This document shows, one piece after another, positions 31,793-42,016 of a DNA stretch of 64,000 nt. The stretch lies in the IMG/VR virus record IMGVR_UViG_3300025732_000019; one strand, written 5' to 3'. This DNA comes from a virus. The notes under the pieces were generated by a model. The model saw nothing but the letters and a program-made list of their open reading frames with translations, was not told where the DNA came from and ran no database searches. Made by a program: the position numbers and the translations under genes. The number at the start of each line of letters is the position of its first letter. The first letter of the stretch is position 1.

Positions 31793-33454
31793 TTACGTTT
31801 TCCAGAAATCCGTATCCTCCACCACCGCATATCGTGACGATGTTGCATCTTCCCATGTGACTTCTGGTTGTACATCAAAAAACCCTATAAACGGTTCCTC
31901 CAGCGTAACGGGTTCCGCTTGGTTCATGAGCATGCGACGCATCGACAGACCCACATAATTTTCAAATCCACTTTGTGCCGTCAACCATCCGAGAATCACC
32001 AGCGTCATCACACAGTCGTCATGTGCGCCTTCTTCCGCTTGATAGGTGCCGCCTTTCGCGACAAATGTCGTGAGTTCTCGAAGTGTTTGGTAATCCGTAA
32101 TCAGCAATTGATCCCGTTCAATCATCGCACGAAGTTGCGCACACCCAATACGTTTCGTCGCTTGCGTCATGCGCAATCCCATACGCGCTTTGGGATTGAA
32201 CCCCCCTCCAAGCATTTGCCCTTTTTTGGGATGTGAGCGCACATAGATCATGTTCTCATACTCTAATTCTGTGTGCAGCGAATCCGCGACCGTCAACCCC
32301 ACGTCATTGATTTCCACGAGCACGAACGCATTGCAATAGTATTGGCCGATTTGTTTGACTAGGGGTGCTAACAACTGCGGTGCCAAATTGTTTCGTCGAA
32401 ACATCGCGACTTGACGAAACGGCGCGACTGAAATATCGAAGACGCTAATGGCCGCATAGTCTTGTTCGTGCCCTTGCGACGTATCGACAGTCATGACATA
32501 GACATGCGCGGGATCCCGTTCGTCAGCGCGAATGGGTTTGACGTAGATCTTGAGATCGCCTCGATCTTCCACAGGCGTCATATACGTCATCTGTGAGAGT
32601 TTATAGCCCGGAATCAGCGTGTTTGCGGATCCTTGGAACGAGCATTCAAACTCTTGCTGGAATGCCTGCTCACCAAGATTCTTGCGCATTTCCTCGGCCC
32701 ATTGCTCGTCGCGACCGGGCACATCACGCCACGTAAACCCAATCGTCTTATAGGTATTACGTTTTTCTTCCGAATCATTCCAAATCTTGTAAAACAGATT
32801 GTATCCGTTTGGTGTGCTAATGACGAACAACTTCGTCGTCTTACCAGACGAGATTGCCGGAAACACGGAGGTCATGAACTCACCCGCAATGTTTTCAGGC
32901 ACGTGCGCAAACTCATCGAGGAACAGAATGTTGAACGTGTCGCCGCGGATGGCGCTGGCACTGGTGCTTTCCGCACGTACGCGGGAGTTGTTCGCGAGCA
33001 TGATGAGCTTCTGATCCCACTTGAGAATGCCTTGCTTTAGGAAGTTGGGCAGATACTCATACGACTGCTTCAATCGGCGCAACAGCTCAATCGCAGTGTT
33101 TTCTTTATTCGCAAGAATGCCAACACTTACATCCGGATGAAAGGTAATGAACCAGAGAAAATATCCACACACCACGACGGTCGATTTTCCCGACTGACGC
33201 GCCATCTTGCAGATAACGAATCGGTTGTTTTCGAAGACGTCGATGATGCTCTCTTGGAACGGCCACATCTTGAACGGCACGATACCATGATCGACGTGCA
33301 CGATCTTAACGTAGTTATTGATGAAGTAGAACGGGTCGTTCGCGCATTTCACATACTCTTCAAGTTCTGCTTGTGTAAGCGAGACTTGTTCGTTGGGAAG
33401 CGGCAGGTTGGGGTTCCCGTTATACCCCTTTTCAGAGCGGGTACTCTTAGGCAT
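31793..33454 (-). CDS. gp17: Terminase large subunit gp17
   Basis: YNGNPNL, RQSGKST, FLDEFAHV, STPNGYN, HDDCVM. Confidence 0.98.
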   Translation of the reverse strand: MPKSTRSEKGYNGNPNLPLPNEQVSLTQAELEEYVKCANDPFYFINNYVKIVHVDHGIVPFKMWPFQESIIDVFENNRFVICKMARQSGKSTVVVCGYFLWFITFHPDVSVGILANKENTAIELLRRLKQSYEYLPNFLKQGILKWDQKLIMLANNSRVRAESTSASAIRGDTFNILFLDEFAHVPENIAGEFMTSVFPAISSGKTTKLFVISTPNGYNLFYKIWNDSEEKRNTYKTIGFTWRDVPGRDEQWAEEMRKNLGEQAFQQEFECSFQGSANTLIPGYKLSQMTYMTPVEDRGDLKIYVKPIRADERDPAHVYVMTVDTSQGHEQDYAAISVFDISVAPFRQVAMFRRNNLAPQLLAPLVKQIGQYYCNAFVLVEINDVGLTVADSLHTELEYENMIYVRSHPKKGQMLGGGFNPKARMGLRMTQATKRIGCAQLRAMIERDQLLITDYQTLRELTTFVAKGGTYQAEEGAHDDCVMTLVILGWLTAQSGFENYVGLSMRRMLMNQAEPVTLEEPFIGFFDVQPEVTWEDATSSRYAVVEDTDFWKT

Positions 33455-37987: not shown

Positions 37988-39292
37988 TTAGGTAAAAGTT
38001 GTCATGACTCCCATTTCCACGTTCGGTGTACGAATCAGGGGCGCGGGTGTGCCCACATGATATTGTTCACACAAGGTGCGCACGTCGATTTTTGCTTGCC
38101 AATCACTATAGCAATATGGAAACTGATATGGTATTTCTCGAATCCACGCCGCAACATTACTTGCGTCTGACGGAGACATTTCCGTCAGACGTGCAGGATT
38201 AAACAGCACCGCTGTAGGGTTCCAGTCGCGCCATGTGCCGTCTTGAATACGAGCCGCAGTAAACCGTGCTGTCGGAGAAATCGGATGTTGGGCACGATGA
38301 ATCGCGTCAGCGTTCGTATCCACTCCCGCAATACGAATATCTGGTCTATATATAGTTAGTCGTCGCAGCAGATGCCCATTTCCGCATCCGAGATCCAACA
38401 CACGTGCCTGCTCCGGTAATTGCGTCGCTAACGCAGGGATCATATCTTCGTGAGTCGTACGCATGCCTTCTGCAGACGAAAATTGATTATCCTTCCATAG
38501 CGTCTTTCGAACACGCTCATAGTGCCCCGTACGAAAGAACTGCTGTTTCTGCGGCGTCCAGTCGCTGCGTGTTGAGATCTTCAACGCAGGTGTGACGATC
38601 TCCGCAATACCAAATAGTCGTGACCACTTTAGCGGCCATGACAAGACTTCACGAATGGTGTGCATCTCCTCACGGTATCCATGTGCGCAACCCAAATCAA
38701 ACATCGCGTGACCGATGCGTTGCGACGCGTCGCACGTATAGGAACACGGCATATGCGACACCAAACGCAGGCCCATCCAGCGCAATAGGGTGCTCGCGTA
38801 GGGGTCGCTATTCGGATGCGCACCCTCGCGTGTTTGTTCCCACGTGCTATCGACACGACCCGCGCCCCATGTGGCATCATACGCGTCTCGGCAGCAGGCG
38901 GGATAGCCTAAGAGTTCGCCATACTGCGCATCGGTTTGTGGAAACGCCCGGTCATAGTATTGCGGGTTCAAATACAAAACCCGATAGACGAATTTTCCAT
39001 CGCGAATGGGTTGAGAGGTGCTGCTATACGAAGAGGCAACACCTACGGTAGTTTGTGGTACGCATAGAATGTTATGCCGCGCAGCCCAGCGGGTGGCCTC
39101 AATAAGACCATCGGAAGGAACATTCTGAAACGCGGCGGGTCGCAGACCGTGCACAACAGCCAATCGTTCGACATCTTGATACGCATTACTCGCACGCGTG
39201 AACAATGGTTGCCACCACTCGCGTTCATCAGCACTGCGCCATGACCATCGTGTCCAATCCGGGAGTACCGGAACATTATCTCTTGTTGACAT
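37988..39292 (-). CDS. Cys-motif domain fused to class I SAM-dependent methyltransferase (434 aa)
   Basis: LLGYPACC and SHMPCSYTC motifs; C-terminal VLDLGCGNG and GVD; GGAG RBS before ATG 39292, overlapping the rSAM end. Confidence 0.75.
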   Translation of the reverse strand: MSTRDNVPVLPDWTRWSWRSADEREWWQPLFTRASNAYQDVERLAVVHGLRPAAFQNVPSDGLIEATRWAARHNILCVPQTTVGVASSYSSTSQPIRDGKFVYRVLYLNPQYYDRAFPQTDAQYGELLGYPACCRDAYDATWGAGRVDSTWEQTREGAHPNSDPYASTLLRWMGLRLVSHMPCSYTCDASQRIGHAMFDLGCAHGYREEMHTIREVLSWPLKWSRLFGIAEIVTPALKISTRSDWTPQKQQFFRTGHYERVRKTLWKDNQFSSAEGMRTTHEDMIPALATQLPEQARVLDLGCGNGHLLRRLTIYRPDIRIAGVDTNADAIHRAQHPISPTARFTAARIQDGTWRDWNPTAVLFNPARLTEMSPSDASNVAAWIREIPYQFPYCYSDWQAKIDVRTLCEQYHVGTPAPLIRTPNVEMGVMTTFT

Positions 39293-40619
39293 CTGTATGA
39301 TCTCCATGATCAGAATAATCACCGTGGGGAACGTCATCGTGCGTATGGGGCTGTGTATCCGTATGATCGCCGTGCTGGTCACCGTGCTTCGTCGCGGGTG
39401 TGGTGCTCGATGACGGCTGCGTGTACTTACTCAAATATGGCGTTTCTTCTTGCGACCATGCGGCGTACATCTGCGCTTCAATTTCTGTGCGCTTGGGGTG
39501 CTCGGAAAACGGCACTTCACCCGCGGCGCGAAGTCGTCGTGCGCCTTCCGCAAATAGACGCTTGAAGGTGCCGCAGTACGTGGAGCGCATGCGCCAATCG
39601 TGATTCGCGCCTTCACCGGGGCATTGCCCGTAACACATGAGCCAATATTCACATCCCTGACATCCACCGTATTCCTGCGGCGTGACATACAACGCAAGTT
39701 GTCGTTCAAAATGTCGAGCACCGGGATGACCGATAAACGTTGAAGCACCGTTTTTCGTGCCGCATCCTTCGGCCGGCAACCAGTTTTGACCATCCTTATT
39801 GGTGCGTGAACAATGCGACGGCGAACCATCATTCTCAATACCATTTACTGCACTGGTATTCCACGGGTCGCAAGGTTTCCAATGACATACGACTGAATCT
39901 CCGTTCCCGCGCTGGAGTTTCAGGATCTCGTCAAACTTGGAGATGCGCAACTGTTTGAATGAAGGCAGGATATTCCAGATCTCAATCAGCCGATCTGCAA
40001 TCTCCTCACTAGGAAGATACAGTTCGTGCGCTTTATGATCCATCTCCATCAAATGCATATTGACATGACGCACACCCATTGTGTCTAGTTCGTGCAACCA
40101 TTCAAGAAATCGAGGAAAGCGATCCGCTCGGCAGTTGCCGGCATGCAGCGTCACGATCAAACTGGGGAGTAAATGCGGAGTGGTGACCGCGCGGCCGCAG
40201 AGTTCTTTCAATGCCCACATGGTACGTTGTGTCTGTTTTCGTGTCGCCTCTAAAGTGCCTGCCCATCGACTATCGTTCAGTTCATCGGGGCCATCCATTG
40301 AGATGCCCACATGCGTGTTATATTTGATGAAGAGTTCGATGTGTTTTTCGGTAATGAGCGACGCATTCGTTTGCACACCCGAATGGCCAAAACGTGTGTG
40401 CGCGATCTGTAACAGTTCGTCTAGATCTTTGAGAGAAAGAATGAGAGCTTCGCCCCCAAACAAGGAGAAGTATTCGTCCGGCTTGAGCTTGTCGATGGCT
40501 GCAAGCACGGCCTTACGGTCATACTTGTGAGATTTTTGCACATTGCGCATTTCCGTTTCGTAACAATACTTGCATTGTATGTTGCACGTAACACCTACAG
40601 GTCTAACTTCAATACTCAT
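39276..40619 (-). CDS. Radical SAM/SPASM-domain maturase with HxD-repeat C-terminal tail
   Basis: CNIQCKYC (CxxxCxxC), FGGEAL, QTN, ISMDGP; SPASM-type Cys CHWKPC...C...CQGCEYWLMCYGQCP...YC. Confidence 0.9.
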   Translation of the reverse strand: MSIEVRPVGVTCNIQCKYCYETEMRNVQKSHKYDRKAVLAAIDKLKPDEYFSLFGGEALILSLKDLDELLQIAHTRFGHSGVQTNASLITEKHIELFIKYNTHVGISMDGPDELNDSRWAGTLEATRKQTQRTMWALKELCGRAVTTPHLLPSLIVTLHAGNCRADRFPRFLEWLHELDTMGVRHVNMHLMEMDHKAHELYLPSEEIADRLIEIWNILPSFKQLRISKFDEILKLQRGNGDSVVCHWKPCDPWNTSAVNGIENDGSPSHCSRTNKDGQNWLPAEGCGTKNGASTFIGHPGARHFERQLALYVTPQEYGGCQGCEYWLMCYGQCPGEGANHDWRMRSTYCGTFKRLFAEGARRLRAAGEVPFSEHPKRTEIEAQMYAAWSQEETPYLSKYTQPSSSTTPATKHGDQHGDHTDTQPHTHDDVPHGDYSDHGDHTDVNKR

Positions 40620-40635
40620 AATAAACTACTTTCTC

Positions 40636-41295
40636 CTATGAACCTACGTAGACGGGTTGATCGTTATGTGCGACGTCACTGTGTGTGTCGTCATGAGAGG
40701 AACTATCGCTATGCACAGAATCCGTATGCACATCGACGTGCCCATCGCTGAAATAATCGGCATGATCCGCATGATTGTCGGTATGAGTGTCACCATAATC
40801 TGTATGCCACTCTGGCGCATCGTTGTGAAAATACGTATCGGTATGTACGTCATCATGATACGAGTCGGAATAGTCTGTATGAGATGAATAATAATCGTCG
40901 TGATCACTATAGCCGGCCGCGTCGCCATGACTTACACTATCACTATGTGAGTCAGTGTGTGCAATATCATCATGCACCGCATACTCATAGTTATTGTTCC
41001 CGATAATCCGCAGTTGTACGTTTCCAGTGGAGGCACTCGTGCCTCCGCTATTCGACACCCAAATAGAACCCGCAATAGCGCCTGTGCGGTTCGCAATCGA
41101 TGTGACGTTGAGTGTGCGGGCAAACCCACTGGCATCAACATAGCGAAGATTGGTGCCTTCCACCCACAACGAACCCACAATAGCACCAGATGCTAAACCG
41201 GTATTGCTGCCAATCGCGTACCACTCGACACCAGATGCATCGATGTAATGTACGGTGTTTCCGGCGACCCAAATGCTACCTGCTGTTTTTGCCAT
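40636..41295 (-). CDS. HxD-repeat protein 2 (putative rSAM substrate / virion appendage)
   Basis: Three GSxWV repeats, then 19 H-x-D plus Y/F-x-D motifs. Confidence 0.8.
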   Translation of the reverse strand: MAKTAGSIWVAGNTVHYIDASGVEWYAIGSNTGLASGAIVGSLWVEGTNLRYVDASGFARTLNVTSIANRTGAIAGSIWVSNSGGTSASTGNVQLRIIGNNNYEYAVHDDIAHTDSHSDSVSHGDAAGYSDHDDYYSSHTDYSDSYHDDVHTDTYFHNDAPEWHTDYGDTHTDNHADHADYFSDGHVDVHTDSVHSDSSSHDDTHSDVAHNDQPVYVGS

Positions 41296-41299
41296 AATC

Positions 41300-42016
41300 T
41301 TATCCTACGTAGACGGGCTGATCGTTATGCGCAACGTCACTGTGCGTCACATCCGCATGTGCCACATCGTTGTGTGTGGCACTATCGCTATGTGAATCGC
41401 TATGCACAGAATCCGTATGCGAATCGACGTGCCCATCGTTGAAATAATCGCCATGATCGGCGTGATTATCGGTATGAGAGTCGCCATAATCTTCATGATA
41501 CTCCGGCGCATCGTTGTGATAATATGTATCGGTGTGCGAGTCATCATGATACGAGTCGGAATAGTCTGTATGAGATGAATAATAATCATTGTGATCACTA
41601 TAGCCGGCAGTATCACTATGTGAATCGTAATGAGTTACGCTATCGGTGTGCGTAATGTCGCTATGCGGCACATCGGTATGCGACACATCATCATGCACTG
41701 CATACTCGTAATTATTGGTGCCGATGATGCGAAGTTGCACATTACCGGTATTCGCGCTGGTGCCCGAGGTGTTCGACACCCATAGCGACCCCGCGACAGA
41801 ATTAGCGCGGCTCGCAATCGTCGCGACATTCAGTGTGCGCTTGTATTGGTTCTCGTCGATGTACGCGAGATTACTGTTTTCGACCCAGATGGAACCGGCG
41901 ACCGCATTCGAGACAAGACCTGTATTGCTCCCAATCGCATACCATTCAACGCCCGAAGCGTCAATATAATGAAACGTGTTTCCGGATACCCACACACTGC
42001 CTGCGGTCTTAGCCAT
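41300..42016 (-). CDS. HxD-repeat protein 1 (paralog)
   Basis: Same architecture with 23 H-x-D motifs. Confidence 0.8.
   Translation of the reverse strand: MAKTAGSVWVSGNTFHYIDASGVEWYAIGSNTGLVSNAVAGSIWVENSNLAYIDENQYKRTLNVATIASRANSVAGSLWVSNTSGTSANTGNVQLRIIGTNNYEYAVHDDVSHTDVPHSDITHTDSVTHYDSHSDTAGYSDHNDYYSSHTDYSDSYHDDSHTDTYYHNDAPEYHEDYGDSHTDNHADHGDYFNDGHVDSHTDSVHSDSHSDSATHNDVAHADVTHSDVAHNDQPVYVG

Follow-up and report, generated by a model that had tools for sequence, protein, structure and literature searches.

The locus described here raises the question of why a radical S-adenosylmethionine (SAM) enzyme carries, at its own C terminus, the short motif that is repeated many times in the proteins encoded beside it. 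The enzyme is encoded in a 64,000-nucleotide stretch of viral DNA (IMG/VR record IMGVR_UViG_3300025732_000019), which is referred to below as the window. It is a radical SAM/SPASM-type protein of 447 residues (39276–40619, minus strand), lying between two genes for presumed substrates with arrays of His-x-Asp (HxD) motifs upstream and a gene for a DUF483-like protein downstream. We found that the HxD tail of this enzyme is a real, selected extension, predicted to be intrinsically disordered, of a large, undescribed radical SAM/SPASM family of phages and prokaryotes. We tentatively suggest that it may act as a substrate mimic tethered to the enzyme.

The tail comprises residues 412–447 (39279–39386, minus strand). 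A previous interpretation of the window from its letters and open reading frames (ORFs), the sequence-only reading, had counted seven HxD and one YSD in this tail, and translation of the region gave exactly the 36 residues that it had quoted. The preceding 411 residues of the core contained no HxD, despite the presence of 18 His and 18 Asp. A stretch of 36 residues with the composition of the core should contain about 0.07 HxD, and shuffling of the tail residues gave a mean of 1.9 HxD, with a probability of 3e-5 for seven or more. Tandem Repeats Finder detected no DNA-level tandem repeat beneath the tail, indicating that the repetition is kept at the protein level and is not a fresh product of slippage. 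The ORFs that overlap the tail in other frames are by-products of its His and Asp codons. We also observed that the frame of the downstream DUF483-like/methyltransferase gene is open across the tail-coding region (39292–39382, minus strand), at +1 relative to the enzyme frame. A frameshift product is conceivable here, given that covalent fusions of the enzyme and the DUF483-like domain exist elsewhere, and the open frame may also be a mere consequence of the His and Asp codons.

To place the tail in its family, we used 701 homologues collected at E ≤ 1e-10 (word-index search) and 250 at E ≤ 1e-30 (exhaustive search, 50% representatives). An HGD/HxD tail was found on approximately 112 of the 120 closest homologues, with a copy number from 1 to 32. 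Among the unfused representatives of less than 50% mutual identity, 61 of 80 had at least one tail motif and 58 of 80 had two or more. The enzymes of the Thermus phages Cumys and phiLo, with 37–40% identity to the window enzyme, were also tailed, and the Cumys enzyme ended with four HxD motifs. Altogether, the tail motif was retained over about 30–100% core identity. Absence of the tail from homologues was one of the outcomes named as refuting in the sequence-only reading; instead, the tail was conserved across a large and deeply diverged family, down to approximately 30% identity. Its view that the tail independently links the enzyme with the HxD motif was supported by the family-wide conservation and by the presence of Asp at position +2 for 91% of the tail His, as in the arrays.

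The consensus of the tail was HGD, very often HGDHTD, and the C-terminal HGD/HGDHTD offers a simple sequence marker for finding this family. The length and sequence of the linker varied among homologues, while the motif stayed. In its minimal form, the tail consisted of one or two motifs at the very end of the protein, following a conserved ...GM.PV.GG[YW]HGD segment. Short tails were also present in L033, L060 and L062. In the prediction for P0056, a homologue with a short tail, the chain was ordered as far as the first HGD and included two short strands there, with a predicted local distance difference test (pLDDT) value of about 80; the final five residues alone were loose. Several clades had conserved short hydrophobic ends after the HxD stretch (..VPV.., ..VEVR., ..KKV.LW, ..GIEV.WL and ..ETGRY...E..EKYG..), suggesting that the HxD segment there may be a loop between two anchored pieces and not a free end.

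Two unusual arrangements of tailed enzymes were noted among the homologues. A 791-residue homologue (P0127) contained a LAGLIDADG-type intein (PF14528) inside the SPASM Cys motif, with the HxD tail still at its end. In four loci, two tandem paralogues of the enzyme were present, both with HxD tails (L006, 8001–11451; L009, 8001–11129; L011, 8001–11390; L012, 103–3492). One paralogue had a long tail of 12–25 motifs, ending in ..KKLW or ..RIVLW in L009 and L011, and the other usually had a shorter tail of 4–7 motifs; as an exception, the longer tail in L006 was on the second paralogue. These tandem tailed enzymes recall the paired enzymes HxsB and HxsC.

We then compared the tail with the arrays of the neighbouring proteins. 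Gly occupied position 2 in 56–62% of the tail motifs, compared with 17% in the arrays, and Thr accounted for 23% in the tails. In the arrays, this position was filled by Ser, Thr, Gly, Asn, Ala and others, and the motifs were separated by spacers of one or two residues, whereas neighbouring motifs abutted directly, with zero spacer, in 40% of cases in the tails. Tyr, Trp or Phe was found at position 1 in 3.8% of tail motifs, compared with 13% in the arrays; Tyr and Trp in the tails were still somewhat enriched for Asp at +2. In five loci (L079, L075, L036, L054 and L016), 32–63% of the array motifs were His-x-Asn (HxN), and none of the 29 tail motifs there was of this type. The 4- to 6-mers common to a tail and the array of its own locus were no more numerous than those shared with arrays of other loci (mean percentile 0.50–0.55), and Gly use was uncorrelated between tail and own array (r = −0.13). 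The sequence-only reading, in which the tail echoes the proteins next to it, was therefore not supported on this point. The candidate explanation of the tail as copied from the array beside it was rejected: there was no k-mer co-variation, the preference at position 2 differed and HxN was absent. By its sequence, the tail shares the grammar of the arrays but is constrained separately and more tightly.

The grammar of the arrays was determined with 60 non-identical arrays (13,467 residues). Asp was located at +2 for 91% of His, 29% of Tyr, 23% of Trp and 21% of Phe, but for only 0–3% of all other residues, indicating that Asp is tied to the aromatic residue two positions upstream. The arrays thus conform to the aromatic-X-X3 motif expected of a triceptide synthase substrate, in which the enzyme connects the aromatic ring with the beta carbon of residue 3. 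Among motifs beginning with His, HAA, HNR and HTK have been proven to form links from His C2 to C-beta (PMC11499958), and a His-x-Ser ring has been proven experimentally (PMC12912966). A site that only binds metal would hardly tolerate the replacement of His by Phe or Trp seen in the arrays, and the His-x-Asp-type grammar fits an enzyme motif of the aromatic-X-X3 type better. From this pattern, and by analogy with triceptide synthases, crosslinking of the aromatic-x-Asp triplets is the likely chemistry. The enzyme would abstract hydrogen from the beta carbon of Asp, and this carbon would then be joined to the imidazole two residues upstream. The product would be a three-residue cyclophane-type crosslink, as formed by triceptide synthases, in the neighbouring virion proteins.

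In conjunction with this array grammar, a possible role of the tail, and the one that we tentatively prefer, is that of a tethered substrate mimic, a flexible ligand that would occupy one or more sites at which the maturation machinery recognizes HxD. One candidate site is the enzyme's own substrate cleft, where the tail might be modified in cis or serve as a placeholder; the other is the DUF483-like partner. In either case, the tail would keep the enzyme engaged or assembled, as an accessory that is not needed for catalysis. Because tail and arrays follow one and the same strict i/i+2 pairing, the tail is unlikely to have a function that has nothing to do with the recognition of HxD. Likewise, given its stricter family-wide consensus, the absence of co-variation and the recurrent losses, it is unlikely to be an exact copy of the substrate or an essential part of the catalytic apparatus. 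The stricter consensus, with Gly at position 2 and Asp never replaced by Asn, is what an optimized ligand would show. The more specific proposal, that the enzyme crosslinks its own HGD tail or that the tail is a tethered ligand docking the DUF483-like partner, is unlikely; if true, this would be the first radical SAM maturase with a functional copy of the substrate motif, beside separate virion substrates. The tail is at the same time a built-in, short and soluble candidate substrate or ligand, so that the intact mass of a single protein could reveal the chemistry.

Loss of the tail was analysed on a tree of 182 unique cores, in which the tail was lost at least 6–8 times. The homologues P0039, P0084, P0103, P0107, P0108, P0111 and P0113 were tail-less. 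No separate small HGDHxD ORF was found in the tail-less loci, and scans of viral contigs with the tail-less P0107 and P0113 yielded distant loci only, or none. The tail is dispensable, not essential. One rejected candidate concerned the position of the partner gene: the DUF483-like/methyltransferase gene was directly downstream in 56 tailed phage loci but in none of 10 tail-less ones, and this association failed in cellular loci, in which the partner directly follows tail-less enzymes as well.

Several observations weigh against the tail as a tethered substrate mimic. A tail-less phage clade (L017, L019, L020, L024, L026, L049, L050 and L053) retained arrays of 12–62 HxD, and tail-less enzymes of Vicinamibacterales (L108–L111) and of soil loci (L128–L138) adjoined arrays of 54–84 motifs. 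The sequence-only reading is qualified by this dispensability of the tail in several lineages with large HxD arrays. Fusions of the enzyme to the DUF483-like domain had no HxD in the linker or at the end (0 of 43), compared with a tail on 78 of 118 unfused enzymes (Fisher p 3e-16). After correction for kinship, only seven independent pairs were available, of which none changed in the same direction and 2–4 in opposite directions (median p 0.25), and the fusions arose mostly inside an already tail-less clade. A functional exclusion, in which fusion makes the tail redundant, was therefore rejected as not significant once relatedness was counted, and is kept as a lead only. No columns of the DUF483-like domain specific to the partners of tailed enzymes were found. 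In the AlphaFold2 model of the window enzyme, residues 408–447 had pLDDT values below 50, being predicted as disordered and undocked. The range of copy number from a single motif to 32 is odd for a simple plug of the active site. Finally, the crosslinking chemistry is an inference for every member of the family.

Docking of the tail was assessed by complex prediction, in which the tail (residues 401–447) was folded as a separate chain together with the core (residues 1–400), SAM and three 4Fe-4S clusters, next to three controls. The core–tail pair gave an interface score (ipSAE) of 0.55, compared with 0.00 for the best control, which the tool graded as 'weak support'; in its calibration, 51 of 78 solved complexes attained this mark, as did 2 of 108 mismatches, and scores of 0.60 or less were those of only 5 of the 78 solved complexes and of all 4 passing mismatches. 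At least 41% of the contacts agreed between runs, and the pLDDT of the partner was 33–35. In itself the score speaks for the tethered mimic, but it is confounded: the partner chain continues directly from core residue 400, and two consecutive pieces of one protein can give such a score. We counted it as little.

Features that distinguish the tail from the arrays also agree with a metal-binding tail, which would chelate Fe(II), Zn(II), Ni(II) or Cu(II) and could provide iron for the three clusters or handle the metal bound by the arrays. His-rich metal tails are carried by HypB, UreE and SlyD, for example, and the variable copy number, disorder and dispensability of the HxD tail resemble them. 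The strict Asp (0 of 29 HxN in the five loci whose arrays have 32–63% HxN), the flexible Gly at position 2 (62% compared with 17%), the zero spacer in 40%, the 2-His-1-carboxylate set provided by HGDH and the rare replacement of His by Tyr, Phe or Trp (3.8% compared with 13%) all agree with metal binding. However, the known metal tails are irregular, and chelation leaves unexplained why 91% of the His stand in a strict i/i+2 pairing that matches the grammar of the presumed substrates. In addition, other phage radical SAM families obtained in the searches show no such tails, and all eight Cys for the auxiliary clusters are conserved, with no open ligand site to fill. We consider metal binding rather unlikely as the role of the tail. 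Somewhat less probable is a homotypic handle, by which the tail would co-assemble with the unfolded arrays, directly or via a bridging metal, with the copy number tuning the avidity. The common grammar of tail and arrays, the multivalency of 1–32 copies and the 12–93 motifs that have to be reached in each substrate are all in line with co-assembly, which needs no sequence co-variation and so agrees with the absence of it. Nevertheless, tail-less enzymes serve equally long arrays, tail copy number has no visible relation to array length, and co-assembly presupposes a hypothetical self-association of HxD segments.

Two other explanations were considered. The enzyme could be a fused precursor of the borosin type, with the tail as a core peptide that would be released as a small product after modification, either in cis or, inside an oligomer, in trans. 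The position of a substrate-type motif at the enzyme's C terminus, behind a flexible linker, has a precedent in the enzyme–substrate fusion OphMA. For the present family this is highly improbable: each enzyme is accompanied by separate substrates of far greater size, the cassette lacks a conserved protease gene, a minimal tail has a single motif 5–8 residues from the end, and many clades carry a conserved docking-type end after the motif. Very unlikely as well is a neutral low-complexity appendage, functionless and drifting in length. The highly variable copy number and the losses, numbering at least 6–8, are what drift would leave, but the motif is kept over about 30–100% core identity, with a family consensus distinct from that of the arrays; no tandem repeat underlies it in the DNA, and the short forms hold one or two motifs at a fixed place.

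The assignment of the enzyme was based on sequence and predicted structure. It matched the radical SAM family PF04055 of Pfam (E 3.6e-14; 53.7 bits, gathering cut-off 29.5), which places it in the radical SAM superfamily, and its CxxxCxxC cluster motif (C12, C16 and C19; 40563–40586, minus strand) was near-invariant in alignments of 36 and 120 homologues. The SPASM-like region (39573–39887, minus strand) contained eight conserved Cys (C245, C250, C270, C320, C323, C329, C333 and C349), all invariant across the 36 homologues, with C320 near-invariant across the 120. Eight conserved Cys in the C-terminal half are enough for two auxiliary clusters. The Pfam search gave no SPASM match at E ≤ 0.01; the enzyme was assigned to the anSME-like SPASM type by these Cys, by a full-length match to the anSME profile and by the Foldseek comparison. 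The core was predicted with confidence by AlphaFold2 using 120 homologues (mean pLDDT 90.5), and the pLDDT fell from 92 to 56 in the Ser/Thr/Pro-rich linker (residues 401–411; 39387–39419, minus strand) that connects the last core helix to the tail. The top Foldseek matches of the core were anSME (4k36–39) and the triceptide synthase ChlB (9gm3/9gmc), with E about 1e-12 and template modelling scores of 0.55–0.71, the ChlB match being no better than that of anSME. The sequence profile ranked anSME first (E 3e-20, full length), and ChlB matched the N-terminal 110 residues only. The best NCBIfam matches were cyclophane-forming and anSME-type peptide maturases, all far under their cut-offs (bits/cut-off: AmcB 69.9/425, YhhB 45.7/445, XyeB 36.3/450 and GrrM/OscB 37.5/310), indicating that the enzyme falls outside all named triceptide families.

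Upstream of the enzyme gene, on the same strand, are the two array proteins, which are paralogues. Array protein 1 (238 residues; 41300–42016, minus strand) has a head of three repeats followed by 23 HxD, and array protein 2 (219 residues; 40636–41295, minus strand) has the same head followed by 19 HxD and ends with NDQPVYVGS; both are presumed substrates. Across the window arrays (40636–42016) and 60 related arrays, the conserved head was about 95 residues long, began with MAK.PGS.WVEG and contained three GS.W[VI] repeats, and the proteins had a conserved H.D.P..[VI]G end. Downstream is the gene for a Cys-rich DUF483-like domain fused to a class I SAM methyltransferase (37988–39292, minus strand), the start of which overlaps the stop of the enzyme gene by 17 nucleotides. 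To judge from the sequence, the window represents the structural module of a T4-like myovirus: its large terminase (31793–33454) shares 44–46% identity with the terminases of Synechococcus phages and of Methylophilales phage Melnitz, and is followed by genes for neck and fibre proteins. A megablast search of the 8-kb region against phage records gave no match.

At the protein level, a tblastn search of phage records identified the Thermus phages Cumys, phiMa and phiLo at 37–40% identity. The window enzyme was 37.8% identical to Cumys_12 in an alignment covering 98% of the query, and thus belongs to the enzymes of the phage 'rSAM module'. In Cumys, the gene order is array protein (54 HxD, with the same head and a similar end), enzyme and DUF483-like protein. 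Nearly all of 78 viral loci showed the same cassette, with the array protein almost always directly upstream of the enzyme and the DUF483-like gene directly downstream; it was also found in many cellular loci, in metagenome-assembled genomes (Acidimicrobiia, Vicinamibacteria, cyanobacteria and others) and soil metagenomes. The DUF483-like domain is the universal third gene, while the methyltransferase is optional, being absent from Cumys_11, L075, L079 and L080. In 102 non-identical sequences of this domain, four Cys (a CC pair and C..C) were kept, together with conserved positions for Trp, Pro, His and Gly. The array was apparently at the end of far longer ORFs, of several hundred to more than 1,000 residues, in some loci; a part of these ORFs are probably over-extended by the ORF caller. 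Annotation of the long HxD proteins with PHROGs returned almost nothing. The gene trio of Cumys and phiMa is reported in the single paper that was found on this module (Kolesnik et al. 2024, PMC11437467), where an unknown DNA modification was suggested. Histidine gave no match in a term search of its text, and neither the arrays nor the enzyme tail occur in the passages covered here. The proposal of DNA modification does not fit the constant pairing of the enzyme with aromatic-x-Asp arrays in tail and fibre modules.

Among known systems, this Thermus 'rSAM module' (Cumys and phiMa) is the same three-gene cassette, with an enzyme of the same family at 37–38% identity. The closest solved structure is anSME (PDB 4k36–4k39), which has two fully Cys-ligated auxiliary clusters and acts on the beta carbon of a protein side chain. 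In contrast to the window enzyme, anSME oxidizes Cys or Ser to formylglycine in sulfatases and has neither an HxD tail nor an array substrate; the window enzyme scored 69 bits with the anSME model of NCBIfam (cut-off 349). The His-Xaa-Ser system combines HxsA, a peptide with repeats of His-x-small residue, with the paired radical SAM/SPASM maturases HxsB and HxsC, and resembles the cassette in this respect. Its third residue is Ser and not Asp, its partner is HxsD and not a DUF483-like protein, and the window enzyme scored only 30 bits with the HxsB model (TIGR03978; cut-off 370), outside that family. In borosins (OphMA) and in kinases with pseudosubstrate segments, a substrate-type sequence is attached to the enzyme that recognizes it. 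These are unrelated enzyme classes, and the tail of the window enzyme coexists with separate and far larger substrates.

The triceptide synthases (XyeB/XncB, GrrM/OscB, YhhB, HaaB, HtkB and ChlB) have, like the window enzyme, an anSME-like radical SAM/SPASM fold and no RRE domain, and their substrates also carry repeated aromatic-X-X3 motifs. The window enzyme differs from them in its scores of 36–70 bits with curated models that have cut-offs of 310–450. HxD is not among the characterized triceptide motifs in the literature covered, in which no triceptide synthase is reported with a substrate motif at its own C terminus. The tail may show a way to couple a radical SAM enzyme to its partner or substrate without an RRE domain. 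Unlike the short leader–core peptides of triceptide systems, the substrates here are whole virion-type proteins with 19–93 motifs, and the cassette appears to apply radical chemistry of the peptide-antibiotic type to whole structural proteins of phages.

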